Shown here one piece after another: positions 7,960 to 51,000 of a stretch of 64,000 bases of DNA; positions within the stretch are counted from its first letter, which is position 1; each line of letters opens with the position of its first letter. The stretch is from an uncultured Myxococcales bacterium. Lineage in GTDB: Bacteria > Myxococcota_A > Polyangia > Fen-1088. The position numbers were made by a program, and so were the translations under genes. Below the pieces are notes generated by a model. It saw nothing but the letters and a program-made list of their open reading frames with translations. It was not told where the DNA came from and ran no database searches. The stretch spans positions 23,672 to 87,671 of the forward strand of contig CAZJMY010000424.1 of assembly GCA_964546845.1 (NCBI GenBank), given 5' to 3'.

Positions 7960-8472
7960 TCAGTGCGCTTCGGTCCCCGTGAGGGCGGCCCGCGTCTCCT
8001 CGATGCTCTTCTGCCGCGACTCGGGGTGCTCGGCAACATACAGGTCGAGGAGCCGGTGCAGTGTGTGCCGTTCGGCGGGTGTCATCCGATGTTCGGGGTG
8101 CTTCTTCGGCGCGGCCTCCGCCGGTTCCTTGCGCGCGGGCAGGGCAGCGCGATCTTCCCCGGCTTCGGCGGCTCTCTCCTTGCGGCCCGCCGCCTCGGCC
8201 TTCTTGGTTTCGAGCTCGATCTCCTTCTCGAGCTGTTTGGCGCGCTTCTCATCGCAGCCCTTCGGCTCGCAATCGCCTGGACACCCGCACTTCGCCTTTC
8301 GGTCGCAGTAGCACGATCCGGCGGAATCCTTGCGACATCCGCAGGCGTTCACGCCTTCGTTTGGTTCGGCTGCCCGGGCGGGGTTGGCGCACGCGACAGC
8401 CGTCACTATGCCGGCAACGACGAGGAGCGGAAATGCGATCGAACCTGATCCTCCAGCGAGTCTATCGGTCAT
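7960..8472 (-). CDS. secreted or lipid-anchored Cys-cluster (metallothionein-like) protein with Lys/Glu-rich helix and His-rich tail
   Basis: Signal-like N-terminus ending VTAVAC. Nine Cys within ~32 aa (ACGCRKDSAGSCYCDRKAKCGCPGDCEPKGC). The start overlaps the RND gene stop by 11 nt. Confidence 0.6.
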   Translation of the reverse strand: MTDRLAGGSGSIAFPLLVVAGIVTAVACANPARAAEPNEGVNACGCRKDSAGSCYCDRKAKCGCPGDCEPKGCDEKRAKQLEKEIELETKKAEAAGRKERAAEAGEDRAALPARKEPAEAAPKKHPEHRMTPAERHTLHRLLDLYVAEHPESRQKSIEETRAALTGTEAH

Positions 8473-11400
8473 GTTGGTCTCCCCCTTCTGTTGGTGCCCC
8501 GCCGTCGACGGTTCTTGGTCGGCGATTTGCGAGGGCGTAAACGGCCGGAAACAGGAGCAGCGTCAGCGCGGTCGCCGTGATGAGGCCACCGATGACGACC
8601 GTGGCCAGGGGGCGCTCGACCTCGCTCCCCGGCGCGGTCGACAGCGCCATCGGGACGAAGCCGAGCGCCGCCACAAGTGCCGTCATCAGCACGGGACGGA
8701 GGCGCATCTCGGCCGCCTGTGCGATGGCATCGCGCGGTGACATGCCCCGTTCCTGCAAGTGGAGGCAGAACGACACCAGCACCAGCCCGTTCAAGACGGC
8801 GACGCCGAACAGCGCGATGAACCCGACGCCCGCTGAAATACTGAACGGGATGTCGCGCGCCAAAAGTGCCAGCACGCCGCCCACCGCGGCGAAAGGGATG
8901 TTGGCGAACACCAGCAGGGCCGGCTTGACCCTGCCGAAGGCCAACCAGAGGAGAAACACGATCAGTCCAAGTGCGAGCGGGACGACGATCGCCAGGCGCG
9001 CCCGGGCCGACGCGTAGTTCTTGAACTGGCCGCCCCATTCGACGCGGTAACCACCGGGGAGTTTCACCTTGGCGTCGACGGCGGCGCGTGCCTCCTCGAC
9101 TGCCGACACCACGTCGCGCCCCCGGACGTTGAACTCGACATTGAGCCGCCGGGACTGCTTGTCGCGGTTCACGAGCGCCGGGCCTGTCTCGAGTACCACG
9201 TCGGCGACGTCGCCCAGCGGGACGATCTGGCCGAGCGTCGACTTCAGGGGGAGGGCGCGCACGACGTCCAGGCTTCCCTGATAATCGAGGGCGGTGCGCA
9301 CGACCATCGCGAACCGGCGGTCTTTCTCGAATACCTCCCCGACGGTTCGCCCGACCGCCATCGTCTCGGTCACCGTGTTCACGTCCTCGACGGTGAGGCC
9401 GTAGCGCGCGAGCCGCGCGCGGTCCGGGCGGATCCTCAGGTAGGTGAGGCCGGCTCCCTGCTCGGCGCGGACGTCCACGACGCCCTGGATGCGCTCCAGC
9501 GCGGATACGGTCTCGCCCCCGAGTTGCTGGAGCTTGTCGAGATCCGGGCCGTAGATCTGCGCAGCGGCATCGGATCGGACGCCTGCGATGAGCTCGTTCG
9601 TCCGCATCTGGATCGGCTGCGACACGGCGGCCGACATCTCCGGCACCTCTCGCTCAACCCTCTCGGAGACCTCGCGCGCGAGCGCGGCCTTCGTCAGCCC
9701 GGAACGCCACTCGGCGCGCGGCTTGAGGAGGATGTAGACGTCGCTCTGCTCCATGCCCATCGGGTCCGTCGCGACTTCGGGCGCGCCCGCCCGCGCGACG
9801 ACGTGCTCTACCTCCGCGATGCCGGCGAGGGCGCGTTCCAACCGACTGTCGGTGGCGACCGTTTCGCTGAGCGCGATTCCGGGCAAGCGCCGCGCCTCCA
9901 GCAGGAGATCGCCTTCGTCGAGCTGCGGGACGAACTCGGCGCCGAGGCGCGACAGCAGCGCCCCTCCCGCCGCGAGCACGACCAGCCCTGCGGCAAGCGT
10001 GATCGAGGGCCGGGCCAGGACGCGCCGGAGCGCGGGCGTGTAGCCGCGGTGGGCCTGGCGCATCAGCCAGGTGTCGTGGCTGCCGCGCGCGGGCCTCAGG
10101 AACCGACTGGCCAGCACCGGCACCAGCGTCACCGACAAGATGAACGCTCCGGCGAGCGCGTAGAGCACGGTCAGCGCCATCGGATGAAACAGCTTTCCTT
10201 CGATGCCGCGGAGGGCGAGGATCGGAAGGTAGACGATGCCGATGATCACCGTTCCGAACACGCTGGCGCCCAGCACCTCCACGGAGGCATCTTTGACGAT
10301 GCCAGGCCGCTGGCCGGCCTCCAGGTCGCTCCCCTTGTCGCGCTGAGCCTCCGCCAGGCGCCGGACGGCGTTCTCGACGATGATGACGGCGCCGTCGACG
10401 ATGAGGCCGAAGTCGATGGCGCCGAGGCTCATCAGGTTGCCCGATGCGCCGGTCAGCGACATGACCGTGACGGCGAACAGCATCGACAGCGGGATCGTGC
10501 AGGCGACGATCAGGCCGGCCCGAACGTCCCCGAGCAGGACGAGCAACACGATCACGACCAGCCCGGCGCCTTCGGCGAGGTTCCTCGCCACGGTCTTTAT
10601 GGTTCGACTCACCAGCTCCGAACGATCATAGAAGGGCTCGACGGTGATGCCCGCGGGGAGGGTCCGGCGCAGTTCCTCGAGCCGTGCTTTCACGCGCTCG
10701 GTGACGACACGCGAGTTCTCGCCCATCAGCATCAGCGCGACGCCCACGACCACCTCGCCCTTGCCGTCCATGGTCGCGGCGCCGCGGCGCAGCCGGGGAC
10801 CAAACCGTACGTCGCCGACGTTGGCGACGGTGATGGGCACGCCCTGCGGAGTCGTGCCCACCACGACGGACTCGAGGTCGGCCAGGCTGGTCACCAGGCC
10901 GACGGTCCCGATGACCACCTGTTCGCGGTTGTGCTCGATGTAGCCGCCGCCGGCGTTGGCATTGGCGCGCTCGAGCGCGTGAATGACCTCTCCGACGGAG
11001 AGGCTGGCGGCCTGCAGGCGCTTCGGATCGATGACGACCTGGTATTGCTTGTCCTCGCCCCCGAAGCTGTTGACCTCGACGACGCCGGGAACGGTACGGA
11101 GCTGCGGGCCGATGTACCAGTCGAGCGTCTCCTCGAGCTCCATGAGCGTGTGCCCCTCGCCCCGGACCACGAACTGAAAGACCTCGCCGAGACCGGTCGC
11201 GATCGGCCCCATCTGCGGCCGTCCGTACGCGGCCGGCACGGCATCCTCGGCCTCGCGCATGCGCTCGAGGACCATCTGGCGAGCGAAGTAGATGTCGGTC
11301 CCGTCGTCGAACACGATGGTCACGACCGACAGGCCGTACTTCGAGATCGACCGGATCTCCGACACCTTGGGGATTCCCGCCATCGCGCGCTCGACAGGCA

Positions 11401-11605
11401 CCGTGACGTACTGCTCGACCTCCGTGGGGGCGAGCGCGGGAGCCGCCGTGATGACCTGAACCTGGATGTTGGTGATGTCCGGGACGGCATCGATGGGCAG
11501 GGTGATGGCCGACCGGACGCCGACAATGATCAGCAACAGCGCCCCCAGGATCACCAGGGCGCGGTGGCGGATCGACCATGCCACGATCGCGTTGAGAAGC
11601 GCCAC
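8462..11605 (-). CDS. czcA: HME-RND efflux pump, CzcA-type (divalent cation)
   Basis: GTG start at 11605, 1 nt after the upstream TGA (track ORF trimmed by 36 codons). TM4 signature DFGLIVDGAVIIVEN is typical of the HME1/2 (Czc) classes. 1047 aa. Confidence 0.92.
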   Translation of the reverse strand: MALLNAIVAWSIRHRALVILGALLLIIVGVRSAITLPIDAVPDITNIQVQVITAAPALAPTEVEQYVTVPVERAMAGIPKVSEIRSISKYGLSVVTIVFDDGTDIYFARQMVLERMREAEDAVPAAYGRPQMGPIATGLGEVFQFVVRGEGHTLMELEETLDWYIGPQLRTVPGVVEVNSFGGEDKQYQVVIDPKRLQAASLSVGEVIHALERANANAGGGYIEHNREQVVIGTVGLVTSLADLESVVVGTTPQGVPITVANVGDVRFGPRLRRGAATMDGKGEVVVGVALMLMGENSRVVTERVKARLEELRRTLPAGITVEPFYDRSELVSRTIKTVARNLAEGAGLVVIVLLVLLGDVRAGLIVACTIPLSMLFAVTVMSLTGASGNLMSLGAIDFGLIVDGAVIIVENAVRRLAEAQRDKGSDLEAGQRPGIVKDASVEVLGASVFGTVIIGIVYLPILALRGIEGKLFHPMALTVLYALAGAFILSVTLVPVLASRFLRPARGSHDTWLMRQAHRGYTPALRRVLARPSITLAAGLVVLAAGGALLSRLGAEFVPQLDEGDLLLEARRLPGIALSETVATDSRLERALAGIAEVEHVVARAGAPEVATDPMGMEQSDVYILLKPRAEWRSGLTKAALAREVSERVEREVPEMSAAVSQPIQMRTNELIAGVRSDAAAQIYGPDLDKLQQLGGETVSALERIQGVVDVRAEQGAGLTYLRIRPDRARLARYGLTVEDVNTVTETMAVGRTVGEVFEKDRRFAMVVRTALDYQGSLDVVRALPLKSTLGQIVPLGDVADVVLETGPALVNRDKQSRRLNVEFNVRGRDVVSAVEEARAAVDAKVKLPGGYRVEWGGQFKNYASARARLAIVVPLALGLIVFLLWLAFGRVKPALLVFANIPFAAVGGVLALLARDIPFSISAGVGFIALFGVAVLNGLVLVSFCLHLQERGMSPRDAIAQAAEMRLRPVLMTALVAALGFVPMALSTAPGSEVERPLATVVIGGLITATALTLLLFPAVYALANRRPRTVDGGAPTEGGDQHDR

Positions 11606-11606
11606 G

Positions 11607-12830
11607 TCACTCCTCCTCGCCGAACGTGCCCTTGAGGATCGCGCTCTTGAGGGTGAAGGTGCCGTCGACGACGACCTGTTCGCCCGCGCGCAGCCCGCCC
11701 AGGATCTCGACACGGCCCCCGGCCGATCGACCGACGGTCACGGGATGCAGCTCGAAGTCTCCGTCTGGCTGGCGAACGAAGACGGCGTCCTTGCCAGCGA
11801 TGCGCGTGACCGCCGAAAGAGGAACCACCACGCGCTTGGCGGGGACAGCGGCCGGCCCGACGACCACGCGCGCCGTACCGAAGAGCCCGACCTTGACGAG
11901 GTCAGCGTGATTGCTAACGAGCACGCGGGCGGTGACCGTCCGGGCCGCGGGATCGATCTGACGGCCGATGGTTTCGATCGAACCTTCGAACGTTTCGGCG
12001 GGATATGCGTTGAGGCGGACCTCCGCCCTGGCGCCGACCCTCACTCGAGCGAGATCCTTCTCGAATAGCCGGCCGAGGAAGTACACGTGGTCCAGATCGC
12101 CAATGACGGCGATGACGTGCTCCGGCTCGACCGTCTGGCCCTGGACGGCGTCTCGGCTCAGGACGAAGCCTGCCAGCGGCGAGCGGATGGCGACGCGGGC
12201 GCTTCCGCCCGCGGCCTGGTCGGCGCCCTGTCCGAACGCGCCTAGCGTCTGCTTTGCGGCGGCCACCTCGGCCTCGAGCGCGGCCGCTTCCGCCGCCGCC
12301 GCGGCGGTCTCCTGTCCCGCCGCCAGGTTCTTCGCCTCGAGGCTCTTCAGGCGGTCGGCGTTGAGCCGGGCGGCCCTCGCCCGCGCGGAGGCGGCCGCCA
12401 GGGTGGCGCGGGCGCGCGCCAGCTCGGGCGATTCAAGGATCGCGATGATCTGTCCCGCCTTCACGCGATCGCCCTCCTTCGCCTTCACGTCGATGACGCG
12501 GCCGGGGAGGCGAGCCGCAAGGCGGGCGGACCGGTCGGGGTCGGCGGCGATTTCGCCTGTCAGGTCCACGGTCCCGGGGAGGCTGTCAGAGGAGGCGGCG
12601 GCGGTCTTGATCCCCGCCGACTTCACGACGTCGGCCGCGAGCCGGACTTTCGTCGGCATCTCTTCGTGCCGCTCCGACTCGTCCTCGTGGTTGGGGCCGG
12701 CCGCCGTCGCCCTTGCGCCGCCGTATTTGGGCGCGGGCGCCCCTTCTGGGGCGCCCGTGCCCGAGCCCCCGCCGCGCGTGCATCCGATCAGCAGGACGGC
12801 TCCGAACGCCATGATTGCGAGCCCGTTCAT
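11607..12830 (-). CDS. czcB: RND membrane fusion protein (periplasmic adaptor)
   Basis: True ATG at 12830, in an ATGA overlap with the OMF stop. Signal/lipoprotein-like N-terminus MNGLAIMAFGAVLLIGC, coiled-coil hairpin and beta-barrel regions. The 797-aa track ORF is an artefactual extension. Confidence 0.88.
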   Translation of the reverse strand: MNGLAIMAFGAVLLIGCTRGGGSGTGAPEGAPAPKYGGARATAAGPNHEDESERHEEMPTKVRLAADVVKSAGIKTAAASSDSLPGTVDLTGEIAADPDRSARLAARLPGRVIDVKAKEGDRVKAGQIIAILESPELARARATLAAASARARAARLNADRLKSLEAKNLAAGQETAAAAAEAAALEAEVAAAKQTLGAFGQGADQAAGGSARVAIRSPLAGFVLSRDAVQGQTVEPEHVIAVIGDLDHVYFLGRLFEKDLARVRVGARAEVRLNAYPAETFEGSIETIGRQIDPAARTVTARVLVSNHADLVKVGLFGTARVVVGPAAVPAKRVVVPLSAVTRIAGKDAVFVRQPDGDFELHPVTVGRSAGGRVEILGGLRAGEQVVVDGTFTLKSAILKGTFGEEE

Positions 12831-14849: not shown

Positions 14850-15350
14850 TCAGCGGCGCCTCCGAGGCGATCGCGGGGAGCGGCGACGGCGGTGCTCGAC
14901 TACGGCGACCGCGACGCAGGCCATTGCGAGGATCGCTATCGATACGACCAACGCGGACCAGTCCCCGGCCGCCCCGTTCGATCGTTCGGACGCGAGCACC
15001 TGTTTTCCCTTGCGCGCCACGAGAGCGGCGACTACGGCCCGGTACGCGCTCTCCGCGGCGGCCGGCGACGACAGATCGCGACCGCGAAGAAGCTCTATCA
15101 TCTCTTTTCGTTCGCGTGCCGCGTCGGGGCAGTGGCAGGCGGACAGCGCAAGGCGCTCGCAACGATCGCAGAGGCAGACGAGATCGCCCCACAGCCGCCG
15201 TGCCACCGCGGCGGTCTGCGGATCGAGTTGCGACAGCTCGGCGGCAGCGGACGCGCCATGGTGATCGAGGTCGGACTCGGACGCAGCGGCGGGCGAGGCA
15301 GCGCTCAGGAAAGCGAGCAGCCCGACACCTACCCGCTGTGGGGTGCTCAC
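14850..15350 (-). CDS. CcmH/NrfF-like Cys-rich periplasmic protein with C-terminal TM anchor
   Basis: GTG start in a GTGA overlap with the cupredoxin gene stop. CLCDRCERLALSACHCPDAARERKEMIELL resembles the CcmH CxxC + helix pattern. C-terminal helix followed by an Arg-rich tail. Confidence 0.45.
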   Translation of the reverse strand: MSTPQRVGVGLLAFLSAASPAAASESDLDHHGASAAAELSQLDPQTAAVARRLWGDLVCLCDRCERLALSACHCPDAARERKEMIELLRGRDLSSPAAAESAYRAVVAALVARKGKQVLASERSNGAAGDWSALVVSIAILAMACVAVAVVEHRRRRSPRSPRRRR

Positions 15351-15817
15351 TGCACCTTTACCGTCCCTTTGAACATGTCCATCTTGCAAGCGTACTTGTT
15401 TTCGCCGGCCTTCGTGAACTTGGTCTTGATCGCGACGGGCTTGTTGAGCGGCAACGGCTTCTCGATCTTCTTCGAGCCGGTGTCGAGGACGACCTCCTTG
15501 ATGCAGGTCTGATCGGTCTTGCGCGTGAAGACGAGCTCGACGGGCTCGCCCTTCTTGACCTCGATGGTCGACGGCTCGAAGCCCTTGTCGGTGATGGCGA
15601 TCTCGACCTTCTCCGCGCCCTTCTTCGCTCCATCTTTGGCCTTCGCGTCCGAGGTGGGCGCGTCGGCCTTCTTGTCCATCTTCTCGGTCTTCTCGGCCTT
15701 GCCCTGGTCCATCTTCATCCCGCCCATGTCGTCGGCGGCGCCTGCCACGCGGGCGACGGTTCCGAGCGCGAAGGCGGTCAGCGAGATCAGCAGGGTGTTC
15801 TTGATTGTCCGGTTCAT
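15347..15817 (-). CDS. cupredoxin-like (EfeO-N/cupredoxin_1-type) periplasmic protein with Met/Lys-rich linker
   Basis: Signal peptide. VEIAITDKGFEPSTIEVKKGEPVELVFTRKTDQTC...YACKMDMFKGTVKV. Paralogue of 59991..60356. Confidence 0.7.
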   Translation of the reverse strand: MNRTIKNTLLISLTAFALGTVARVAGAADDMGGMKMDQGKAEKTEKMDKKADAPTSDAKAKDGAKKGAEKVEIAITDKGFEPSTIEVKKGEPVELVFTRKTDQTCIKEVVLDTGSKKIEKPLPLNKPVAIKTKFTKAGENKYACKMDMFKGTVKVQ

Positions 15818-15826
15818 GTTCAGCTC

Positions 15827-18800
15827 CTATTGCGTTTGAGTCGCGGCGGGCCAGACCACCTGGCGCGCCGTCGGTCGGTGAAGGATGTAGCTGGAGACCC
15901 CACCCAGGAACACGAGGCCGGCTGCGATCTCGCCGATGACCAGGCTGCGGCCAGGGAACGTGACGTAGATGCTCGCCACGGCGAACCCGGCAGCGAGGGC
16001 AGCCCCCGTCGCGACGATGGCCGCGTCAATCTGTTGCCGCCGGAGTAGCTGGCGCGCGCCGAGCTCCGTGAGCCGGCCCCAGAGCAACTGCTCGAGGCGC
16101 CAGTAGGTGACGATGACGGGGATGATCTCCAACGTCAGGAAAGCCGAGGTCAGCAGTCCGCCCACCATCGGCGCGGCAATCCGCTTCATGACGTCGGAGC
16201 CCGAACTGGTCGCCCAAAGGAGGGGCACCAGCCCGATCAGCATGGTGGAGACCGTCATGAGCTTTGGACGCACGCGCTGAACGGTCCCTTCCATGTGAGC
16301 GGCGACGATGTCGTCGAGGTTGCGGATGAGGCCCGCCGCTTTGCGCCGCTGGAAGGCGTGGTCGATGTACACAATCATGACGATGCCGGTCTGCGCCGCG
16401 AGGCCGACCAAGGCGATGATCCCGACCCAGACAGCCGTCGACAGCCGGTAATCGAGCAGGTACATCAGCCAGACGCTGCCGATGAGCGCGAACGGGATCG
16501 ACAACAGGATGATCAGGACCTCGATGAAGTTCCTGAACTGCAGGAACAGCAGCAGCGTGATGATCAGCAGCGTGACGGGTATGACAACCTTCATGCGCGC
16601 GAGCATCACGGCGAGCTGCTCGTACTGGCCGGTCCACTTCAGGAAGTAGCCGGCAGGTATCTTGAGATCGCCGCTCGCCATGGCCTTGGCTACCACCTCC
16701 TTCGCCTCGTTCACGTAGCCGCCGATGTCGCGCTGGCCTGAGTCGATGTCGACGTAGACGTATCCAACGAGCAGGCCCGCCTCGTCGCGCACCATGGGCG
16801 GGCCGCCGGCTACCTTGATGTCGGCGATCTGGCCGAGCGGGACGAAGCCCTGCCGGGTTGGTGCACCTGCGATACCCCCGACTGGGGCTGCCATCGGCGC
16901 GGCCATGTCGGGACTGCCGGCCATCGAGCCGCCGGACATGGTGCCCATGGGTGGCATCGGCATGTCGGTGGCCGTGGGCGGACCGCTCGGGAGGCGCGGG
17001 CGCGACATGCTCCCGGCGGACGATCCGGCCGACGTGCCGCTGCCCATGCCCTCCATGTTCTGGGCGAGGAAGATGGGGTGCGGCCAGCCCAGGGCGCCGG
17101 CCGACGCGAACATGGTTTTGCCGGGGGTGGTCTCGAGGGCCCCCTGCGAGCCCATCGGGGGCATCCCGCCGCCGGTGCTCGATCCGCCGCCCGAGCTACC
17201 ACCGCCGATCGGCACCAGCACCTGGCGCAGCGACTCGAGGTCACTGCGGAGGTCCTGCGGGTAGCGGACATTTATCGAGAAGCGGTTGCGGCCCTCGACG
17301 GTGGTGCCGATCGGCGCACCGCCGATGGCGCTCTCGATGACGCGCTCGACGTCGGCGATTCGCAGCCCGTAGCGCGCGAGCTCGTCGGGCTTCGGGGTGA
17401 TGTCCAGGTAAAGCCCGCCCAGGTTGCGCTCGTAGAGCACGCTGCGCGTCCCCTTGATGGGCGCCAGCAGGTGCTCGAGCGAGACCCCGACCTTCTCGAC
17501 CTCGTTGAGATCGGTGCCGAACACCTTGATACCGATCGGCGTGCGAACGCCCGTGGTCAGCATGTCGACGCGCGTCTTGATCGGCATCGTCCAGGCGTTG
17601 GTCCAGCCCGGAAACTGCATCTTGCCGTTCATCTCTGTCGTCAGCTCCTCCCACGACAGGCGCTGCTCCTCCGGCCAGATCGGTCGGAAGACCGGTTTGA
17701 GCCATCCGGGCGCCCAGCCCGAGTACCAGCGATCGTGATGCTTCTTCCGCCACTGCTCCGGCGGCCGCAGTTGCACCGTCGTTTCCACCATGGTGATCGG
17801 GGCGGGGTCGGTCGCGCTCTCGACGCGGCCGACCTTGCCGAACACTGTCTCGACCTCGGGGAAGCTGCGCAGGATTCGGTCCTGGTACTGGAGCTGTCGC
17901 TTCGCTTCCTCGATGGAGATGTTGGGGAACGTGATCGGCATGTAGAGGAGGTCGCCCTCGTTGAGCGGCGGCATGAACTCGTTGCCGAGGTGCATGGCGA
18001 CCGGTACCGCCGATGCGAGGGCGAGGAGGCCGATGGCGACCGTCGACTTCGGGCGCCGGAGCGCGACGTAGACGAAGGGTTCGTACAGCCGGATCAGGAA
18101 GCGCGAGACCGGGTGCTTCTTCTCGGGCAGGATCTTCCCGCGGATGAAGAGGTCCTGCAGCGCCGGCGCAAAGGTGATCGACAGCAGCGCCGAGATCAGC
18201 ATGACGAAGGTCTTGGTGTAGGCGAGCGGCTTGAAGAGCCGCCCTGCCTGCCCGTTCAGCGTGAACACTGGCAGGAACGCCACGGCGATGATCAGCAGCG
18301 AGAAGAAGATCGCCGGCGTGACCTCCTTGGCCGCCTCGATCAGGATGCGGTGCCGGTCGGCACCCGGTCCGGCGTGCTCGAGCTTCTTGTGCCCCGCCTC
18401 GATCATCACGATCTGGGCGTCGACCGTGGCGCCGATGGCGATGGCGATGCCACCGAGGCTCATGATCGTCGATGGGATGTCGAGCAGCACCATCGGGATG
18501 AACGACAGGGCCACGCTGATCGGCAGCGACAGGATCGGCAGCAGCGAGCTCCGGAAGTGGAGCAGGAACAGCATGATCACGATGCTGACGACGATCGCTT
18601 CCTCGGTGAGGGCGTGCTTCAGAGTGTCGATCGACCGCTCGATCAGTCCCGACCGGTCGTAGGCGATCTTCAGCTCGACGCCCTCCGGGAAGCTGGGCCT
18701 CAGCTCCTCGATCTTCTTCTTGACGCGGCCGATGACGTCGAGCGCGTTCTCGCCGTAGCGGGTGACGACGACCGCGCCAACCGCCTCACCCTCGCCGTTC

Positions 18801-19636
18801 CATTCAAGGAGTCCGCGCCGGATGTCTGGGCCGAAACGCACGGTGGCGACGTCCTTCACGAGCAACGGGGTGCCGCTCGGCCCGTTCGTGCGGATCGCGA
18901 TCTTCTCTATGGCGCCGAGGTCGTGGATGTAGCCGCGTCCGCGGACGTAGTACTCGCGCCCGGAGAATTCGATGATGCGGCCGCCCACGTCGTTGTTCGA
19001 CTGCCGGATAGCGTCCATGACCTCGGTCACCGTGACCCCGTAGGCGCGCAGGCGGTTGGGGTCGACGGTGACCTGGTACTGCTTCTGGTAGCCGCCCACG
19101 CTCGCTACCTCCGCGACGCCGTTCACGCTGCCGAGCGCGTACCGCAGCGTGAAGTCCTGGAACGTGCGCAGCTCGTCGAGGCTGTGCTTGCCGGACTTGT
19201 CCACCAGCGTGTACTGGAAGGTCCACCCGATTCCGGTGGCGTCGGGGCCGAGCGTCGGACTCACGCCGTCAGGTAGCGCGCCGCGGAGGCCATTCATGTA
19301 CTCGAGCACGCGGCTCCGCGCCCAGTAGATGTCGGTCCCCTCCTCGAAGATCACGTAGACGAACGACATCCCGAACATCGAGAAGCCGCGCACGTCCGTG
19401 ACGTGAGGCGTGCTGATCAGCTTGGACACGATCGGGTACGTGACCTGGTCCTCGATCAGCGTCGGACTTCGGCCCATCCACTCGGTGAAGACGATGACCT
19501 GTGGGTCCGACAGGTCAGGGATGGCGTCCAGCTTCATCTTCTTGATCGACACCAGCGACGCGACGAGCGCGAAGCCGACGCCCAGCAGGACCAGCAGCCG
19601 GTTGCGGGCACAGAACTCGATGATTTTCTCGACCAT
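15827..19636 (-). CDS. cusA: HME-RND efflux pump, CusA-type, with Met-rich insertion and C-terminal extension (1269 aa)
   Basis: TM4 signature AIGATVDAQIVMIE (monovalent Cus class). GAGGAG RBS. A ~118-aa insertion is encoded at ~16850-17213, and ~88 extra C-terminal residues contain two hydrophobic helices. Confidence 0.9.
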   Translation of the reverse strand: MVEKIIEFCARNRLLVLLGVGFALVASLVSIKKMKLDAIPDLSDPQVIVFTEWMGRSPTLIEDQVTYPIVSKLISTPHVTDVRGFSMFGMSFVYVIFEEGTDIYWARSRVLEYMNGLRGALPDGVSPTLGPDATGIGWTFQYTLVDKSGKHSLDELRTFQDFTLRYALGSVNGVAEVASVGGYQKQYQVTVDPNRLRAYGVTVTEVMDAIRQSNNDVGGRIIEFSGREYYVRGRGYIHDLGAIEKIAIRTNGPSGTPLLVKDVATVRFGPDIRRGLLEWNGEGEAVGAVVVTRYGENALDVIGRVKKKIEELRPSFPEGVELKIAYDRSGLIERSIDTLKHALTEEAIVVSIVIMLFLLHFRSSLLPILSLPISVALSFIPMVLLDIPSTIMSLGGIAIAIGATVDAQIVMIEAGHKKLEHAGPGADRHRILIEAAKEVTPAIFFSLLIIAVAFLPVFTLNGQAGRLFKPLAYTKTFVMLISALLSITFAPALQDLFIRGKILPEKKHPVSRFLIRLYEPFVYVALRRPKSTVAIGLLALASAVPVAMHLGNEFMPPLNEGDLLYMPITFPNISIEEAKRQLQYQDRILRSFPEVETVFGKVGRVESATDPAPITMVETTVQLRPPEQWRKKHHDRWYSGWAPGWLKPVFRPIWPEEQRLSWEELTTEMNGKMQFPGWTNAWTMPIKTRVDMLTTGVRTPIGIKVFGTDLNEVEKVGVSLEHLLAPIKGTRSVLYERNLGGLYLDITPKPDELARYGLRIADVERVIESAIGGAPIGTTVEGRNRFSINVRYPQDLRSDLESLRQVLVPIGGGSSGGGSSTGGGMPPMGSQGALETTPGKTMFASAGALGWPHPIFLAQNMEGMGSGTSAGSSAGSMSRPRLPSGPPTATDMPMPPMGTMSGGSMAGSPDMAAPMAAPVGGIAGAPTRQGFVPLGQIADIKVAGGPPMVRDEAGLLVGYVYVDIDSGQRDIGGYVNEAKEVVAKAMASGDLKIPAGYFLKWTGQYEQLAVMLARMKVVIPVTLLIITLLLFLQFRNFIEVLIILLSIPFALIGSVWLMYLLDYRLSTAVWVGIIALVGLAAQTGIVMIVYIDHAFQRRKAAGLIRNLDDIVAAHMEGTVQRVRPKLMTVSTMLIGLVPLLWATSSGSDVMKRIAAPMVGGLLTSAFLTLEIIPVIVTYWRLEQLLWGRLTELGARQLLRRQQIDAAIVATGAALAAGFAVASIYVTFPGRSLVIGEIAAGLVFLGGVSSYILHRPTARQVVWPAATQTQ

Positions 19637-19648
19637 GACGAATTCTCC

Positions 19649-21364
19649 TCAACGCCAAGGCTTCGGGATGGCCTTCTTGCAATCCTCTTCCATCGTTCCC
19701 ATTCCGCGGTGCTGGATCTCGCAGGCGCGGCAGGCCTGGTACTTGTCGGGGAACGTCTTCATGTCGAAGTCGGCGTCGCACGCCGACTTCGGAGCAGCGC
19801 CCCCCGTGGGCGCTTCGCCAGCGCCCGACGTCTGCCCTTCGATCGCCGCGCGGAGGCGGCTCTCGGAGTCGATGAGGAAGTTCCCGGTGGTCACCACCGT
19901 CTCGCCTTCGGCGACTCCGCTCAGGACTTCGACCCGGTCCTTCAGGTGGGAGCCGAGCTTCACCATGCGGGGCTCGAAGTGTCCGTCCTCCTTGGCCACG
20001 AACAGATACTGGGTCTCGCCTGTATCGACGACAGCTTCGGCCGCGACCATGAGGCCGGTCGTGGCCGGCAGGTCCAGGTGGACGGTGCCAAACATCCCGG
20101 GGCGAAGCCGCGGACCGGTGCGATCGAAGCGGTTCCTGAACTCGAGCCGCACCTTGAGCGTTCGACTCGCGGGGTCGACCGTCGGGTAGACGAACTGGAC
20201 CTTCCCTACGTGCGTCTCGCCCGGAAACGAGGTGAGCTCGAACCGGGCGTGCTGCCCGACGCGGATCCGCGACACATCTTGCTCGTAGATGTCCGCCGTC
20301 ACCCAGACCGTCCGAAGATCGGCGACCTGGAACAGTACCGTCCCCGGCTGGACGACGACGCCGACCAGGGCGTTCTTCGCCACGACGTAGCCTTCGACGG
20401 GTGAGCGGATCGCGATCGCGTCCACGGGCTTCCCCGATTTGACGATCTCGTCGATCTCGTGCGCCGAGATGCCCAGGAGCTCGAGCCGCCGACGCGCGTT
20501 GTCTTCCAGGCCGGCAGTCGGCGCCTCGTGATCGTGAACGCCGCCGGTGGCGGGCGGGGTGGCGCTCCAGCCGCGCGTCACCAGCAGCTCTTGTTCCGCG
20601 CGAAGGACGTCCGGGCTGTAGATCGTCGCCAGCACCTGACCGCGCCGCACGCTCTCCCCGGTCGCCGAGACCTTCAGCGACTGAACCCAGCCGCTGAACC
20701 GGGTCGTGACCTGAGCGAGGCCGCGCTCGTTCGCCTCGACCGAGCCGACCGTCCGCAGCTCGCCGCCCAGCGCCTCGCGCTTGACGACGGCGGTCTTCAT
20801 GCCGATGAGCTGGATTCGCTCCGGTGTGAGGTCGACGCCCGCGAGGCCGGGAACGGGAGCGGGCGCTGGCGGCGCGGCTGCCGCGGGCTCCGCTGCCGCT
20901 GGCCGGGGCACCATCTTCATTCCACAGTCGGGACACTTCGCGTTCGGATCGTCGGATGTCCGGTTCGGGTGCATCGGGCAGTAGTACTTGCCACCCGGCT
21001 GCGGCTGGCCTGCCGTTCCCGCCGCGGCCGCCGGCTTCATCGACGGCGACGGCTTCACCGGCCCCGTCGGCTTCGGCACCAGAGTCATGCTGCAGATCGG
21101 GCACTCGCCCGGATGGTCCTGCACCACCGCTGGGTGCATCGGGCAGTAGTAGAGCTGCCCGGACGATTCGGCCGTCGTGCCGCCGATGCGCACGCCCGCG
21201 AAGTGCATGATGGTGCCCACCGCCACCAGCGCGGTCAGGGCGACGAGGACCCACCTCACGATCGCCATCGTATGCGCGCCGCGCGGCGGCCCGACGGGCG
21301 CGGCATCGTCCGGCGGCGGCCCGTCCACCGGCGTCTTGTCGTCAATGCTCTTCAGCGTGCTCAT
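19649..21364 (-). CDS. cusB: RND membrane fusion protein with two N-terminal HMBD modules and Cys-rich C-terminus
   Basis: YYCPMHPAVVQDHPGECPICSMTLVPK and YYCPMHPNRTSDDPNAKCPDCGMKMVPR. MFP core. C-terminus ACDADF...CRACEIQH...EEDC. ATGA overlap with the OMF stop. Confidence 0.9.
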   Translation of the reverse strand: MSTLKSIDDKTPVDGPPPDDAAPVGPPRGAHTMAIVRWVLVALTALVAVGTIMHFAGVRIGGTTAESSGQLYYCPMHPAVVQDHPGECPICSMTLVPKPTGPVKPSPSMKPAAAAGTAGQPQPGGKYYCPMHPNRTSDDPNAKCPDCGMKMVPRPAAAEPAAAAPPAPAPVPGLAGVDLTPERIQLIGMKTAVVKREALGGELRTVGSVEANERGLAQVTTRFSGWVQSLKVSATGESVRRGQVLATIYSPDVLRAEQELLVTRGWSATPPATGGVHDHEAPTAGLEDNARRRLELLGISAHEIDEIVKSGKPVDAIAIRSPVEGYVVAKNALVGVVVQPGTVLFQVADLRTVWVTADIYEQDVSRIRVGQHARFELTSFPGETHVGKVQFVYPTVDPASRTLKVRLEFRNRFDRTGPRLRPGMFGTVHLDLPATTGLMVAAEAVVDTGETQYLFVAKEDGHFEPRMVKLGSHLKDRVEVLSGVAEGETVVTTGNFLIDSESRLRAAIEGQTSGAGEAPTGGAAPKSACDADFDMKTFPDKYQACRACEIQHRGMGTMEEDCKKAIPKPWR

Positions 21365-22656
21365 CGCCTCCCTCCCTCGACGGCGAGCGTCCCTGCCGCG
21401 CGTTCCAGATCGGCCTGGCTCGATGCCAGCTCCGCCAGCGCGCGCACGCGCTCGATGCGGACCTGCAGGTACGAGCGCAGGGCATCCAGGATGGTCGCCG
21501 CGTCGCCGCGTCCACCCGCGTAATCCGCCTGCGCTGCTTCCAGGCTCTTGCGCGCCTGCGCCAGCAGGTCCTGGTCGACGATCGTGAACGATTGCTTGGC
21601 CGAGTCCACGCGCGCCGCCGCATCCCGCAGCTCGTACCGCACGGCTACCTTCGCGGATTCCAGCGCGCGCTGCTCGGCGATTGCCGTCTGCTGCGCTTCC
21701 CGCTCCTCGTCATGGCGGCGGCCGGAGAGCCAGGGCAGGTTGATCGCAACCATCGCGCCGTAGGCGTGCTGGAAATCAGGAAACGTCGGCATGTACCAGT
21801 AGTCGAGGCCGACCATCAGCTGCGGGTACCGCGCCGAGAGGCGCGCGGCATCGAGCAGCGCCTGGCTGCGCCGCACGGCCCGGCTCGCGGCGTCGATCTC
21901 GGGGCGGTTCGCGTCGACGCCGCGCTCGAGCGCGGCGACATCGGCGGACGGCACCACGGTGAGATCTTCGGGCGGCCCGAGCGGCGCGTCGGCTGGGCGA
22001 TTCATGAGGGCGTTCAGGAGCGCCCGGCTCGACCGCTGCTCCCGCTCGATGCGCGCGACGTCGGTGTGAATGCGGGTCAGCTCCAACTCCAGGCGGAGGA
22101 CGTCCTGAACACTGCCGTGGCCCGTGCGCTGATTGAGCTTGGCCAGCTCCACGATCCGCGAGGTGAGGCCGGCGTGCTCGAGGTGCAGGCGCAGCTCCTG
22201 GTCAGATCGGTAGTAGACCGCGTACGTGCGGTGGACCTGCGCTGCGATGTCCTGCCGGCGCGCGCGGAGCGAATCCGCGGCGCTGCCGGCGTCCTCCGCC
22301 GCCGCCCGGCCACGGGCGTCCAGCGTTCCCCACGCCGGGAACGTCTGCCGCACGCCGAACATCACCGTGTTCGCCTCGTTCAGCGCATGAGGCCGCGCCA
22401 GGGGCACGCCCCATTGCTCGTACTTGGCCTCGAGGTCAGGCAGCCGGGACGCCGCCTGGCTGCGCGCCTCCGCGGCGCGCGCGCGTGCCTCGCCTTCCGC
22501 GACGTCGCGGTTTTGCTCCAGCGCGACGCGCAGAATCGTCTCGAGCCGTGCGCTACGGGCCAGCTCGGCCTCGTCGCCGGAGGCGGCCCGCGCGTTCCAA
22601 GCGGGCAGGAAGATGAGACAAGCAATTGCGATCGCAGTCAGTCGAACGGATCTCAT
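21361..22656 (-). CDS. cusC: TolC-like outer membrane factor
   Basis: ATG at 22656 gives the signal peptide MRSVRLTAIAIACLIFLPAWNARA. OMF repeat architecture and operon position. Confidence 0.87.
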   Translation of the reverse strand: MRSVRLTAIAIACLIFLPAWNARAASGDEAELARSARLETILRVALEQNRDVAEGEARARAAEARSQAASRLPDLEAKYEQWGVPLARPHALNEANTVMFGVRQTFPAWGTLDARGRAAAEDAGSAADSLRARRQDIAAQVHRTYAVYYRSDQELRLHLEHAGLTSRIVELAKLNQRTGHGSVQDVLRLELELTRIHTDVARIEREQRSSRALLNALMNRPADAPLGPPEDLTVVPSADVAALERGVDANRPEIDAASRAVRRSQALLDAARLSARYPQLMVGLDYWYMPTFPDFQHAYGAMVAINLPWLSGRRHDEEREAQQTAIAEQRALESAKVAVRYELRDAAARVDSAKQSFTIVDQDLLAQARKSLEAAQADYAGGRGDAATILDALRSYLQVRIERVRALAELASSQADLERAAGTLAVEGGRR

Positions 22657-22759
22657 GAGGCGCTCCCGAATCAGGATCGTTGAGGTTGTGGATACACGAA
22701 TGCCCAGAGCCACCCGGACGCGCGAGCGCGCACGAGTCAGCGTCGGTCGTGATCCGGCC

Positions 22760-23185: not shown

Positions 23186-23282
23186 CGAGAGATTCCTGTC
23201 AAACCGTGGGGAAACACCGACGGGACTGTGGACAGGCCCGGTCCCGCGGATGCAGGACCGGGCCGATATCAGCCGGGCCGCA

Positions 23283-46594: not shown

Positions 46595-48042
46595 GTGACG
46601 AGAGTAACAGAGAGGATGCGAGGAAAATGACCACGACGACAACGCCTGTCTCAGGGATACATTGGTGGAGCCGCGTGCACAGTGTCGGCGCCCTTTCGAT
46701 TGGCGCGGTCCTGCTCGTCGCGGGCATCGCGATCGGCGCGAGTCTGAGCCACATCGGCAGACGGACGGTCGCGGGTGTGGGCGTACCGACCCAGAAAGAG
46801 ACAGCCATGGGACCAGCCGTCACGGCATCGGACCCTGCCTCGCCGCCGACGGCGACGAAGCCCGTCACTCGCGTCAAGATCTCTCCCGAACGCCAGCAGC
46901 TCATCGGTGTTCGGACGGCGATCGTGGGCGCCTCAGTTGCGGAGGGGACGATCCGCACCGTCGGCATCCTCGCCTACGACGAGACCAAGGTGACCGAGAT
47001 GCATGCCAAGGTGGCGGGCTGGGTGGAGAAGGTCAACGTCGATTACGTCGGCAAGTCGGTGCGGAAGGGCGATCCGCTGCTCTCGCTCTACAGCCCTGAC
47101 CTGGTCGCCGCCCAGCTCGACTACCTCGTGTCACTGAAGAGCGTGGGAGGGAAGGTTGCGACGCCGACATCGGTCGGCCGACACCTCGACCATTCGCTCA
47201 CCGAAGCAAGCCGGATGCGGCTCAAGCTGCTCGACATGACGGACGCTCAGATCGCAGACCTCGAGCGGACGGAGCGTCCATCCAGGACTGTGACGCTGTA
47301 CTCGCCGTTCTCCGGCGTCGTGATCGAGCGCAAGGCTTTCTCCGGGCAGTACATCACGCCGGATATGGCGACGGTGAAGATCGGGGATCTCACGACGATC
47401 TGGGCGATCGCCCAGGTGTACGAATACGAGATCGGCAAGGTGAAGATCGGTGACGTCGCGGAGGTTCAGTTCCCCTACGAACAGGCGAAGCCGGTGGCGG
47501 GACGAGTGAGCTTCATCTACCCGGACGTCGATCCGCATACGCGCACGGCGCGGGTCCGCGTCGCGTTCCGCAACCCGGGCGTGAAGCTCAAGCCGGAATC
47601 GTTCGTGACGATCACTCTTCACGCCGCGGGTAAGTCTCGGCTCTCCGTGCCGAGAGAAGCGGTGATCGACACCGGCCCCAGGCAATACGTCCTGATGGCG
47701 CTGCCCGACGGCTACTTCGAGCCCCGAGACGTCTCGGCCGGCGAGCCCGAGGGTGACTCCATCCCGATCTCGGCTGGCCTCGTCCCTGGCGAGCGCGTGG
47801 TCACGTCGGCGCAGTTCTTGATTGATTCGGAGACGAACCTCCAGGCCGCGATGCAGTCGATGTCGATGACGATGCCTGGAATGAAGACGGACGAGAAATC
47901 CCCCGGGGACGACATGAGGGGGATGGACATGAGCAAGGGGACCGGCACGAAACCAAGCTCTGCACCAGTGCCTGGAGACGACATGAAGGGAATGGACATG
48001 GGGCCTGCCACGCCGGCGCGAACGGGAACGGATCGCAGATGA
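46591..48042 (+). CDS. cusB: RND membrane fusion protein with Met-rich C-terminal tail
   Basis: MFP core (GTIRTVGILAYDETKV...LYSPDLVAAQ...). Tail with MQSMSMTMPGM and a duplicated GDDM(R/K)GMDM. ATGA overlap with the RND gene. Confidence 0.9.
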   Translation: MSDESNREDARKMTTTTTPVSGIHWWSRVHSVGALSIGAVLLVAGIAIGASLSHIGRRTVAGVGVPTQKETAMGPAVTASDPASPPTATKPVTRVKISPERQQLIGVRTAIVGASVAEGTIRTVGILAYDETKVTEMHAKVAGWVEKVNVDYVGKSVRKGDPLLSLYSPDLVAAQLDYLVSLKSVGGKVATPTSVGRHLDHSLTEASRMRLKLLDMTDAQIADLERTERPSRTVTLYSPFSGVVIERKAFSGQYITPDMATVKIGDLTTIWAIAQVYEYEIGKVKIGDVAEVQFPYEQAKPVAGRVSFIYPDVDPHTRTARVRVAFRNPGVKLKPESFVTITLHAAGKSRLSVPREAVIDTGPRQYVLMALPDGYFEPRDVSAGEPEGDSIPISAGLVPGERVVTSAQFLIDSETNLQAAMQSMSMTMPGMKTDEKSPGDDMRGMDMSKGTGTKPSSAPVPGDDMKGMDMGPATPARTGTDRR

Positions 48043-51000
48043 TCAAGAAGCTGATCGCGTTTTCGGCGCGGAGCCCGTTCGTCGTCGTCCTATTGATGGT
48101 CGTCATCGTGGGCGCCGGCGTGTGGGCGATTCGCCATACACCGATTGACGCGATCCCGGATCTCTCGGATGTGCAGGTCATCGTGACGACTAACTGGGAG
48201 GGCCGCAGCCCGACGCTGGTCGAGGACCAGGTCACTTACCCCATCGTGACCGCCCTGCTGTCGGCGCCGCGGGTGAAGGTGGTCCGCGGGTTCTCGTACT
48301 TCGACATCTCGTTCGTCTACGTCATCTTCGAGGACGGCACCGATCAGTATTGGGCCCGCTCGCGTGTCCTCGAGTACTTGAACGGCTTGCAAGGCCGCCT
48401 CCCGGCCGGCGCACAGCCCGTGCTCGGACCGGACGCGACCGGCGTCGGCTGGGGATTCGAATACGCGCTCGTCGACAAGACCGGAAAGCATGATCTCGCC
48501 GAGCTCCGGACGCTGAACGACTGGTACGTGCGCTATTGGCTGCGATCTGTGACTGGCGTGGCCGACGTCGCCCCGGTGGGTGGTTTCGTCAAGCAGTATC
48601 AGATCGAGATCGATCCGAACGCGCTGCTCGCCTACAACGTGCCCATCGATCGCGTGATCGCGGCCGTGCGGAAGAGCAACAACGATGTCGGTGGGCGCGT
48701 GGTCGAGTGGACCGGCCACGAGTACATGGTGAGAGGTGAAGGTTACGTCAAGAACGTGGCCGATCTCGAGCAGGTGGGCCTCGGGGCGAAGCCGGACGGC
48801 ACGCCCATCCTCGTGAAGAACATCGCACGCGTTCACCTCGGGCCGGAGATGCGCCGAGGGGTAGCCGAGCTCGACGGTCAAGGCGACGCGGCCGGCGGCA
48901 TCGTCGTCATCCGGTCGGGCGTCGACACCTACGGTGTGCTGTCCGCGATCAAGAAGGCAATCAGAGAAAAGATCCAACCAGCCCTTCCTCCGGGCGTAAA
49001 GCTGGTCACCACCTACGATCGCTCGCAGCTCATCGAGCGGTCGATCGAGACCCTCAAGGGGAAGCTGATCGAGGAGATGGCGATCGTTTCGCTGGTGTGC
49101 ATCGTCTTCCTCTGGCATTTCCGCAGCGCGCTTGTCGCGATCCTGACGCTTCCCTTGGCGCTCTTGCTCGCCTTTGTCGCCATGCGCCTCGTGGGCCTCG
49201 GTTCGAACATCATGAGCCTGGGCGGAATTGCGATCGCCATCGGCGCGATGATCGACGCCGCGATCATCATGATCGAGAACGCCCACAAGCACATCGAGCA
49301 CGCGGGCGACACGAAACCTCGGCGTGAGATCCTCATCGAGGCGGCTCAGGAGGTGGGGCGGCCGCTCTTCTTCTCGCTCCTCATCATCACGGTGTCGTTC
49401 CTGCCCATCTTCACTCTGGAGGCGCAAGAGGGCCGCCTCTTCAAGCCGCTCGCCTTCACGAAGACGTTCTCGATGGGGTTCGCGGCGCTGACCTCGGTGA
49501 TGATCGTCCCGTTCTTGATGGTGCTGTTCATCAGGGGGCGGATCCCTCGCGAGGACAGCAACCCCGTGAACCGATTACTCATCTGGGCGTATCACCCGTT
49601 CGTCAGGCTGGTCCTCCGTCATCGCGCGCTCACGCTGCTTGCGGCGGCTGTGCTCCTCGGCAGCACCGTGCCGGTGATCATGAAGCTCGGCTCGGAGTTC
49701 ATGCCGCCGCTCTATGAGGGGACGCTGCTCTACATGCCGCTCACCCTCCCGGGCGCTTCGGTGGCGACGTCGCAGCAGATCCTGGCGCTACAAGACAAGC
49801 TCATCAAGGAGATCCCCGAAGTGGCGTCGGTGTTCGGTAAGGCCGGCCGCGCCGAGACGGCCACTGACCCGGCGCCGCTCGAGATGATCGAAACGGTCAT
49901 CAACCTCAAACCCGAGTCGGAATGGCGCCCTGGGATGACCCCCGACAAGGTCGTCGCGGAGCTCGACAAGAGGGTACGAGTGCCCGGCGTCGCCAATGCC
50001 TGGACCATGCCCATCAAGGCGCGCGTCGACATGCTCTCGACAGGTATCAGGACGCCCGTTGGAATCAAGATCTTCGGGCCGACCCTCGAGACGATCAACG
50101 ACATCGGGGCGCAGATCGAGGGGGCGCTCGGTTCGGTACGCGGGACCCGCAACGTCTTTTCCGAGCGGGTCACCGGCGGCTACTACGTCGACTTCAAGGT
50201 GAGACGCGACCAGATCGCGCGTTACGGCCTCACGGTCGAGGACGTGGAGATGGTGATCGAGTCGGCGATCGGCGGCGCCAACGTGACTACGACCATCGAG
50301 GGGCGCGAGCGCTACCCGGTGAACGTACGCTACCAGCGCGCCTACCGGACCGACGTCAAGGCGCTGAAGAGGACGCTCATCGCCGCTGGCGACGGCACGC
50401 AGATCCCTCTCGAGCAGGTCGCCGACATCAGCCTCAGCACCGGACCGACCGTGATCCGGACCGAGCAGGCGCAGCTTCTCGGGTACGTCTACGTCGACGT
50501 GTCCGATCGCGACATCGGAGGGTACGTAAACGACGCCAAGCAAGCCGTGGCGAGAATGGTGAAGCTGCCGACCGGCTATACGCTGGAATGGAGCGGGCAG
50601 TACGAGTACATGCTTCGCGCCAAGGAGCGCCTCAAGGTCGTCATTCCGATCACCCTGCTCGCCGTCATCGTGCTTCTCTACTTCAACACGCGCAACGTCG
50701 CCAAGATCGTCATCGTCCTTCTCGCCGTGCCCTTCTCGTTGATCGGCGCTTTCTGGGTGGTTTATCTGCTCGGCTACAACCTGAGCGTTGCCGTCTGGGT
50801 TGGCTTCATCGCGCTGGCCGGAGTCGACGCCGAGACCGGCGTGGTTATGCTGCTTTACCTCGACGCCGCTTACGATCGCGCGAAGAGCGAGGACCGGATG
50901 AACGGCCTTCGCGATCTCCAGCTCGCAGTCGAGGACGGGGCCGTCAAGCGCATCCGACCCAAGATGATGACGGTCATGGCGATCCTGATGGGGCTCCTGC

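Follow-up and report, generated by a model that had tools for sequence, protein, structure and literature searches.

A predicted disordered, methionine-rich loop at the docking-hairpin tip of CusA-type pumps from uncultured Myxococcota

The resistance-nodulation-division (RND) pump CusA moves Cu(I) along methionine sites (PMC8277102). Met-rich regions of other periplasmic proteins bind Cu(I) in a statistical fashion, a "Cu sponge" whose affinity per site is low and whose avidity is high, and in E. coli CueO's Met-rich domain, which carries 14 Met, Cu(I) binding is thought to be dynamic in this sponge-like way; the role of such domains is still called elusive (PMC11840665). Cu resistance depends on a His/Met-rich disordered region of the outer-membrane channel PcoB, a region that withstands alteration of its length and sequence (PMC12509749). 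Here we describe a long Met-rich insertion within a CusA-type pump itself. The pump is encoded at 15827..19636 (minus strand, 1269 aa) of the window, by which we mean the whole analysed stretch of 64,000 nucleotides from an uncultured Polyangia (Myxococcota) bacterium, a soil myxobacterium. The insertion comprises 119 residues (aa 811-929; 16850..17206, minus strand) and was delimited by alignments, composition and AlphaFold2 (AF2) models, which place it at the tip of a β-hairpin in the DC (docking, or funnel) subdomain. A preliminary description of this DNA had supposed that a Met-rich loop grafted onto such a pump was undescribed, and our full-text searches of the literature found no description of such a Met-rich insert in an RND pump. 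Relative to the searched papers and structures, the loop is an undescribed, predicted disordered, Met-rich accessory of a CusA-type pump.

The assignment to the CusA type, also proposed in the preliminary description, is borne out by the open reading frame (ORF) and by Pfam, NCBIfam, PDB and fold comparisons. The pump is a CusA-type heavy-metal RND protein. It matches the NCBIfam model TIGR00914 ("CusA/CzcA family") at 1025.8 bits against a cut-off of 701 and Pfam ACR_tran at 665 bits, phmmer against PDB sequences returns E. coli CusA entries at E = 4e-288, and the top Foldseek fold matches are the CusA/CusBA structures 3ne5 and 3k07 (3ne5_A, E = 1e-72). The three-Met Cu(I)/Ag(I) site of CusA, M573/M623/M672 with E625, aligns to M566/M616/M692 and E618 in the pump. 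Transmembrane helix 4 (TM4) reads AIGATVDAQIVMIEA versus AVGAMVDAAIVMIEN in CusA, the sole change being the final Asn to Ala; we take AxGxxVDxxIVxIEN to be the CusA-type (HME4, heavy-metal efflux group 4) signature, as opposed to DFG..DGA..VEN in CzcA-type pumps. These sequence features assign the pump to the CusA-type monovalent Cu/Ag (HME4) group, with Cu/Ag transport and resistance as its predicted roles.

The insert is most easily seen against the paralogous pump encoded elsewhere in the window (48039..51182, 1047 aa), with which the pump is colinear. BLASTP aligns the two at 52% identity up to ...LRQVLVPIGGGSS (...SLRQVLVPIGGGSS), and the match restarts at VPLGQIADI. The same break appears against the E. 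coli CusA structures, in which query residue 807 corresponds to chain residue 794 and query residue 932 to chain residue 803, and a MAFFT alignment with AcrB and E. coli CusA (sequence from NC_000913) opens a single clean gap of about 116 columns. The site of the insertion relative to the paralogue and the sequence quoted for it in the preliminary description are both correct, and the interval given there, 16850-17213, is essentially exact and is here refined to 16850-17206. The 119 nearest relatives of the paralogue (82-93% identity) are all 1042-1064 aa long, and the CusA and ZneA chains matched in the PDB search are 1045-1055 aa long, in both cases too short to hold such an insert.

Alignment with CusA and AcrB puts the insertion point at the tip of the DC hairpin, where the insert takes the place of the turn T790-P791-M792-K793-Q794-Q795 of CusA and A794-D795-G796-Q797 of AcrB. 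The first arm of the hairpin is the β-strand VLVP (aa 806-809; 17210..17221, minus strand), which aligns with AcrB "YVRA" ahead of D795/G796, and the second is GFVP (aa 930-933; 16838..16849, minus strand), which aligns with AcrB "VPFS" and CusA "ITLA". The AcrB counterpart of the whole hairpin is "YVRAADGQM/VPFSAF", with the insert aligned to the tip A794-D795-G796-Q797-M798 and, in CusA, to the tip P791-M792-K793. Two AF2 models were built, one of residues 1-1190 from a 66-sequence alignment and one of residues 540-1269, with a mean predicted local distance difference test (pLDDT) score of 64 and 71, respectively. The first model has a helix at 794-804, a strand at 807-810 (block pLDDT 73), 117 residues without secondary structure and a strand at 930-933 (block pLDDT 80). 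Within the insert, pLDDT is 26-31 in the first model and 36-50, as coil, in the second, and neither model contains secondary structure or a confident stretch that would mark an ordered island. The insert is thus predicted to be intrinsically disordered, as the preliminary description had proposed.

In these models the insert is at the β-hairpin tip of the DC subdomain and not in the porter domain, and of the "porter/docking" location originally suggested only the docking part stands. The D795/G796 tip of AcrB is reportedly the "TolC-docking" hairpin of the cross-linking studies of Tamura et al. 2005. Funnel/docking subdomains have an extra β-hairpin after helix α2 (PMC8277102), here that of the C-terminal subdomain, DC. 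In current AcrAB-TolC structures, the funnel domain is engaged by adaptor β-barrel domains arranged in a ring (PMC13095208). Given the hairpin-tip site and this engagement of the funnel domain by the adaptor ring, the loop emerges at the pump's top rim, where exit funnel and adaptor meet.

The insert is rich in Gly (22.7%), Ser (13.4%), Pro (13.4%), Ala (12.6%) and Met (10.9%), in keeping with its earlier characterisation as Met/Gly/Ser-rich. Gly, Ser, Pro, Ala and Thr together make up 70% of it, and it has 4 basic and 4 acidic residues, 1 His and no Cys. We count 13 Met, not the 14 previously reported. Met is 2.7% in the remainder of the pump (binomial P = 2e-5 for the excess in the insert), and GC content at third codon positions is 91% in the gene and 87% in the insert, so that compositional drift does not explain the surplus of ATG codons. 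The Pro/Ala-rich low-complexity linkers of the adaptor encoded in the same operon contain 0-1 Met. Across the 126 long inserts analysed, Met averages 8.3% versus 2.8% elsewhere in the same proteins, Cys is absent and His is 0.6%. Pairs of the form M-x(1-3)-M number 352, above every composition-preserving shuffle (264±13), a comparison that is indicative only since the sequences are related.

Despite this composition, the insert is not featureless low complexity and contains four motif islands with 80-95% conserved columns. The first, MPPMGSQGAL (17135..17164, minus strand; family consensus PMGTQGAL), is found as G[TS][QEDK]G in 105 of the 126 long inserts. Relatives with a short tip carry "MGTEG", "MGKDG" or "MGKEG" at this site (in full "RAMGTEGG", "PMGKDG" and "TMGKEG"), a likeness by which the island probably represents the hairpin turn of the ancestor. 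Conservation is deepest in the second, WPHPIFLAQNMEGMG (17042..17086, minus strand), which consists of a hydrophobic residue and LAQ followed by an MxxM pair and GG. L47, Q49 and M51 are each conserved at 90% or more, A48 occurs in 48/48 sampled sequences, LA[QE] is present in 114 of the 126 long inserts and the complete pattern, hydrophobic-LAQ-(x)M-x(1-2)-M-GG, in 95 of them, and the element is kept in members that are 73-80% identical. The third, SRPRLPSGP (16979..17005, minus strand), has R69, L72 and P73 conserved at 90% or more, with an RPRLP-like pattern in 99/126. The fourth begins with (S/T)D(M/A)P, in which D81 is invariant, and continues into the densest Met cluster of the insert, TDMPMPPMGTMSGGSMAGSPDMAAPMAAP, with 7 Met in 29 aa (16883..16969, minus strand); its pattern [STA]D.P, with A, M or V at the third position, is present in 118 of the 126.

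Nei-Gojobori estimates against four close orthologues give dN/dS (the ratio of nonsynonymous to synonymous rates) of 0.21-0.41 for the insert and 0.07-0.13 for the core, with dS in the insert at 0.9-1.7. This indicates that the insert evolves under purifying selection that is relaxed about threefold relative to the core, as far as such rough ratios allow.

The insert is not peculiar to this genome and marks a clade of uncultured Myxococcota pumps. A search of 5.8 billion proteins yielded 120 clusters of close relatives (74-93% identity, most of them 1240-1290 aa), those with names being "Polyangia" or "Myxococcales" metagenome-assembled genomes (MAGs). An insert of 98-140 aa with 5-16 Met is present in 102/120 of them (103 when the query is included), and at least 126 homologous inserts of 55-140 aa were found in Myxococcota MAGs, mostly Polyangia. 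Among GTDB species genomes we kept the best 80 of 179 relatives, all of them MAGs and almost all Myxococcota, and tabulated 79. At core identities of 73% or more, 24 of 29 of these loci have a long insert (58-128 aa) and 5 of 29 have one truncated to 18-52 aa; in another subclade the DC tip measures about 25-32 aa and contains a "GM" motif once or twice, and the tips of the remaining loci are 3-15 aa. One MAG (JBKJQC01, Polyangiales ant_bin.485) encodes two long-insert pumps, L013 and L016, with inserts of 106 and 92 aa, and the family can therefore be multi-copy in one genome.

We also asked where such a sequence could have come from. No tandem DNA repeats were found in 16850-17213, and an origin by microsatellite-like expansion was rejected. 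Capture of a domain from another protein was likewise rejected, as an exhaustive search of 1.84 billion cluster representatives with a hidden Markov model built from 48 inserts, which replaced a word-indexed search that had returned a single fragment, found no other context for the module. None of its 12 matches places the insert outside this RND clade: 11 are fragments, frameshifted pieces or divergent members of the same clade, and 1 is a chance eukaryotic repeat.

As to what the loop does, the reading that we favour, with a probability of roughly 40%, is that, at the interface between pump exit and adaptor, it may act as a flexible sponge or relay whose many Met would bind Cu(I)/Ag(I). Each protomer carries one loop, three per trimer, at the top rim where metal exits the funnel and the ring of adaptor β-barrels is seated, and the loops would hold soft metal ions at low affinity and pass them into the adaptor/outer-membrane duct. 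The LAQ-MxxM-GG element and the downstream Met cluster would supply thioether ligands, and the RPRLP and SD(A/M)P motifs would probably position the loop against partner subunits. Three loops would amount to about 350 residues inside or at the adaptor ring; a water-filled flexible mesh of this kind need not obstruct transport where ions, and not drugs, are pumped. That the loop binds metal, passes it outward and contacts partners is what we infer from composition and analogy. The Met enrichment and MxM/MxxM clustering to be expected of a flexible periplasmic segment of a copper-handling protein are both found in the insert. In a stronger version, which we regard as very unlikely, the three loops, uncharged and rich in Gly, Ser, Pro and Met, would fill the lumen of the adaptor ring as a thioether brush, forming a phase selective for soft metals, or a one-way valve, that would let Cu(I)/Ag(I) hop outward and would hinder back-flow and other solutes. 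The LAQ-MxxM-GG elements of the three protomers might then form a shared Met site on the three-fold axis, an arrangement that we liken to the FG-nucleoporin barrier and to the Met rings of Ctr1.

Several points weigh against a sponge or relay. In 18 of the 120 close relatives the insert is cut to 5-54 aa, usually with both ends kept, and a neighbour-joining tree of the core columns scatters these short forms at no fewer than 10 separate places among the long forms. The insert is therefore ancestral to the clade and has been truncated repeatedly and independently. Several short forms lie on long contigs or recur in several assemblies (P0047, for example, is on a 289-kb contig in the same operon), and they are real variants. 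Such repeated shortening suggests that the insert is dispensable for basic pump function. Distant insert-bearing members have only 2-4 Met per 64-93 aa while LAQ...M(xxM) and SDAP stay, and something besides bulk Met content is conserved. With the mean pLDDT values given above, the AF2 models reach moderate quality, and low pLDDT is no proof of disorder; the dN/dS values, too, are affected by dS near saturation and by uncertain alignment within the insert. Finally, the adaptor ring probably encloses the hairpin tip or presses on it, and the 119-aa loop could serve chiefly in assembly.

A reading built on that last point, which we hold to be somewhat unlikely, makes the loop a tether whose LAQNM, RPRLP and SDAP motifs would dock the adaptor (at its β-barrel/lipoyl ring) or the tip of the outer-membrane factor and would stabilise or regulate the complex, with Met secondary. 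It would account for a position on the hairpin that faces the adaptor β-barrel ring, for 80-95% conserved islands within variable linkers, which are typical of short linear interaction motifs, and for the persistence of the motifs in distant members with few Met. It leaves the Met enrichment and M-x-M clustering unexplained, no adaptor feature (tails, HMBD number, Cys4 tail) co-varies with the insert, and loop-less relatives have the same operon partners. The same truncations with retention of the gene, together with the predicted disorder, the variable length of the long form (98-140 aa) and tips of 3 to 128 aa across the wider clade, are what one would expect if the hairpin tip of a high-GC genome had gathered functionless Gly/Ala/Ser/Pro-rich sequence as a neutral, tolerated expansion. 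This looks unlikely in view of a dN/dS of 0.2-0.4 in place of about 1, motifs that remain 80-95% conserved at saturated dS, a threefold Met enrichment against the GC bias where the adaptor linkers have 0-1 Met, and the lack of tandem repeats in the DNA.

Metal handling on the opposite side of the pump was considered as well. Like a built-in CusF or CusB N-terminal tail, the loop might be a periplasmic capture arm that delivers Cu(I)/Ag(I) to the PC1/PC2 cleft and the three-Met site, serving uptake and not exit. In favour of such an arm, the pump has an intact three-Met site, the 119 aa suffice to span the way to the cleft, the loop is Met-rich and flexible with MxM/MxxM motifs, and other subunits encoded here bear Met-rich tails (the C-terminus of the paralogue's adaptor and the N-terminus of the cupredoxin). 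We nevertheless find such an arm quite improbable, since its anchor at the funnel top is engaged by the adaptor ring, which makes access to the bulk periplasm and to the cleft doubtful, and since the operon already has a candidate periplasmic copper protein. The preliminary description had named a sequencing or assembly error as a possible flaw. Such an artefact, or one of gene calling (a frameshift or chimera), has practically no likelihood: beyond the low-complexity look of the segment nothing speaks for it, the gene is one uninterrupted ORF with coding-like composition in the insert, and homologous in-frame inserts recur in more than 100 independent metagenome and MAG proteins from JGI, ENA and NCBI and also in the genomes of about 28 GTDB species; projects and assemblers differ between them, and long-read contigs are included. 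The artefact reading is thereby refuted.

The pump gene lies in an operon with the expected partners. In same-strand order these are an outer-membrane factor of the CusC/TolC type (21361..22713, minus strand, 450 aa, two Pfam OEP domains), a CusB-like adaptor or membrane-fusion protein (19649..21364, minus strand, 571 aa; Pfam HlyD_D23, two HMBD and HlyD_3) and the pump, a tripartite HME-RND layout that is conserved in related loci. The match of the adaptor to the NCBIfam CusB subfamily is below its cut-off. The adaptor has two N-terminal HMBD Cys motifs (YYCPMHP...CPxC) and a conserved C-terminal Cys4 tail, C..DFD...C(R)xCExQHRGMGTMEEDCKKAIPKPWR, which some of the related operons also have, irrespective of the pump loop. 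A cupredoxin-like periplasmic protein (15347..15817, minus strand, 156 aa; Pfam Cupredoxin_1 and a faint CopI match) is encoded directly downstream of the pump, as it is in many related loci, and has a Met-rich N-terminal region, DDMGGMKMDQG...KMDKK. In Rubrivivax gelatinosus, the His-Met tail of CopI is necessary for Cu resistance (PMC11840665). An exact-sequence look-up, made for habitat data, gave no record of the pump; its 93%-identical relative and one truncated relative have the same operon. The idea that a Met-rich region moves between subunits, with an adaptor Met tail in loop-less operons, was rejected because there is no complementary pattern: the adaptor tail averages 0.88 Met with the loop versus 0.81 without it, and neither the adaptor Cys4 tail nor HMBD number showed any co-variation with the pump loop.

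Two small ORFs flank these genes. One, upstream of the outer-membrane factor gene (22760-23299, minus strand), has one hydrophobic segment and Cys clusters (LRCRIDGLLRTACCCSH...QDCC), gave no Pfam domain match, and is conserved in position in the closest related loci (L001-L004, L014 and L023). The other, downstream of the cupredoxin gene (14850-15389, minus strand), combines a Cys-rich motif, LVCLCDRCERLALSACHC, with a hydrophobic segment at its C-terminus and may tentatively be likened to CcmH/NrfF-type thiol-redox proteins. A 170-aa ORF stands in the same place beside the 93%-identical relative.

Outside its hairpin tip, the pump departs from E. coli CusA in several of its functional residues. 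D405, E412 and K984 of CusA are retained. Of the residues that presumably make up the CusA proton relay (D405, E939 and K984), two are conserved as D406 and K1125, and E939 is replaced by Q1082, which is also present in all 77 related loci that cover the position. Among the four methionine pairs that we take to form the CusA relay (M271-M755, M391-M1009, M403-M486 and M410-M501), only M391/M1009 is intact, the broken positions being I272 for M271, P775 for M755, T404 for M403 and Q494 for M501. This pattern is common to the wider Myxococcota clade with or without the DC-tip insert: almost all of the 79 tabulated loci have Thr404 and Ile at position 272, Met never occurs at position 775, where Pro predominates, and position 494 holds Gln chiefly among the nearest relatives and otherwise Arg. 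In the paralogue (48039-51182), M271, M403, M486, M410, M501 and E939 are retained and M755 is missing. Judged by these residues, the pump is not an equivalog of E. coli CusA. We considered and rejected the idea that the loop compensates for loss of the periplasmic exit pair M271-M755, since I272 is near-universal and position 775 is never Met even where the tip is 3-10 aa, and since the paralogue also lacks M755.

Two further additions to the pump were noted. A Trp-rich insert of 29 aa, KKHHDRWYSGWAPGWLKPVFRPIWPEEQR (aa 631-659; 17660..17746, minus strand), directly follows the strand that bears the metal-site residues M616/E618; it is missing from the paralogue and from E. coli CusA in alignments and is conserved, at 27-29 aa, in 79/79 analysed related loci. 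The other is a C-terminal extension of about 80 residues (aa 1190-1269; 15830..16069, minus strand) with two hydrophobic helices, aa 1195-1224 and 1231-1261, which are modelled by AF2 at pLDDT 83-95 in agreement with hydropathy and family conservation. This suggests that they are putative TM13 and TM14 of a 14-helix RND permease. Most of the clade has the extension, and a subset with proteins of about 1090 aa lacks it.

The window is an island of several metal-resistance systems, in which the operon is surrounded by genes for a CDF transporter, a P1B ATPase and two further RND systems. One of these, at 8462-11713 and 12827-14152 (both minus strand), has its own outer-membrane factor and a CzcA-type TM4, DFGLIVDGAVIIVEN, a signature that marks the pump at 8462..11713 as a probable divalent-cation pump. 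In the paralogous Cus operon, the CusB-like adaptor (46591-48042, plus strand) has a Met-rich C-terminal tail with DDM(R/K)GMDM repeats, ...AAMQSMSMTMPGMK...DDMRGMDMS...DDMKGMDMG..., so that in the same genome a Met-rich appendage also occurs on a different subunit of a Cus-type system. Elsewhere, 58134-59975 (plus strand) encodes an unusual protein in which a YHS metal-binding domain, at the N-terminus, is fused to part of a carbohydrate-phosphorylase-like domain.

The loop bears on the route that Cu(I)/Ag(I) takes after leaving the CusA funnel, by way of the adaptor and the outer-membrane duct. More than 100 loop sequences and at least 10 independent truncations make up a natural variant series at the exit/adaptor interface, which could be used to test whether flexible thioether arrays serve metal hand-over or pump assembly. 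It also indicates that the DC hairpin tip of RND pumps can host a large disordered insertion, a tolerance relevant to models of adaptor docking and to RND pump engineering, and the position and conservation of the insert would surprise an RND specialist. The carriers found are all uncultured MAGs, and we infer the function of the loop by analogy.

With the Met-rich domains of CueO and PcoA/CopA and the His-Met tail of CopI, the loop has in common that it is periplasmic, predicted to be flexible and multi-Met. Some members of the insert family contain "GLMDHSMGSGGxMP", which resembles what we take to be the MDHSxMxGM repeats of CopA/PcoA, and the search with the 48-insert profile against 1.84 billion representatives found no homology to the known Met-rich domains of CueO/PcoA, PcoB or CopI. 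The CueO, PcoA/CopA and CopI segments sit on an oxidase or cupredoxin and the loop sits on a transporter, and the CueO segment partly folds over the T1 site. The N-terminal domain of PcoB is likewise a poorly conserved, disordered, Met-containing region on a membrane part of the periplasmic copper-export route, and its tolerance of changes in size and sequence resembles the length variation of the pump loop (PMC12509749). The PcoB region is, however, a His-dependent terminal tail on a β-barrel, whereas the pump loop is internal, almost free of His (0.6%) and has conserved motifs. The N-terminal Met triad of CusB and CusF provide a Met-based hand-over of Cu(I)/Ag(I) that feeds CusA (PMC8277102), but these are separate proteins or tails on the entry side, and the loop is part of the pump and is anchored on its exit side. 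A more distant parallel, as a functional analogy only, is Ctr1. This eukaryotic trimeric Cu(I) channel has extracellular Mets motifs and an MxxxM pore ring. Like the pump it is a trimer, and where its Cu(I) pathway opens it has flexible segments with MxM/MxxM motifs; its fold and transport direction are unrelated to those of the pump. The closest described system remains E. coli CusA (3K07, 3NE5), with which the pump shares fold and family, the three-Met site with E625, an HME4-type TM4 and an operon with adaptor and outer-membrane factor. Relative to CusA, the pump adds the 29-aa Trp-rich insert and about 80 C-terminal residues, has one relay pair left and Gln in place of E939, and has 119 aa where the hairpin tip of CusA has the 6 residues TPMKQQ.

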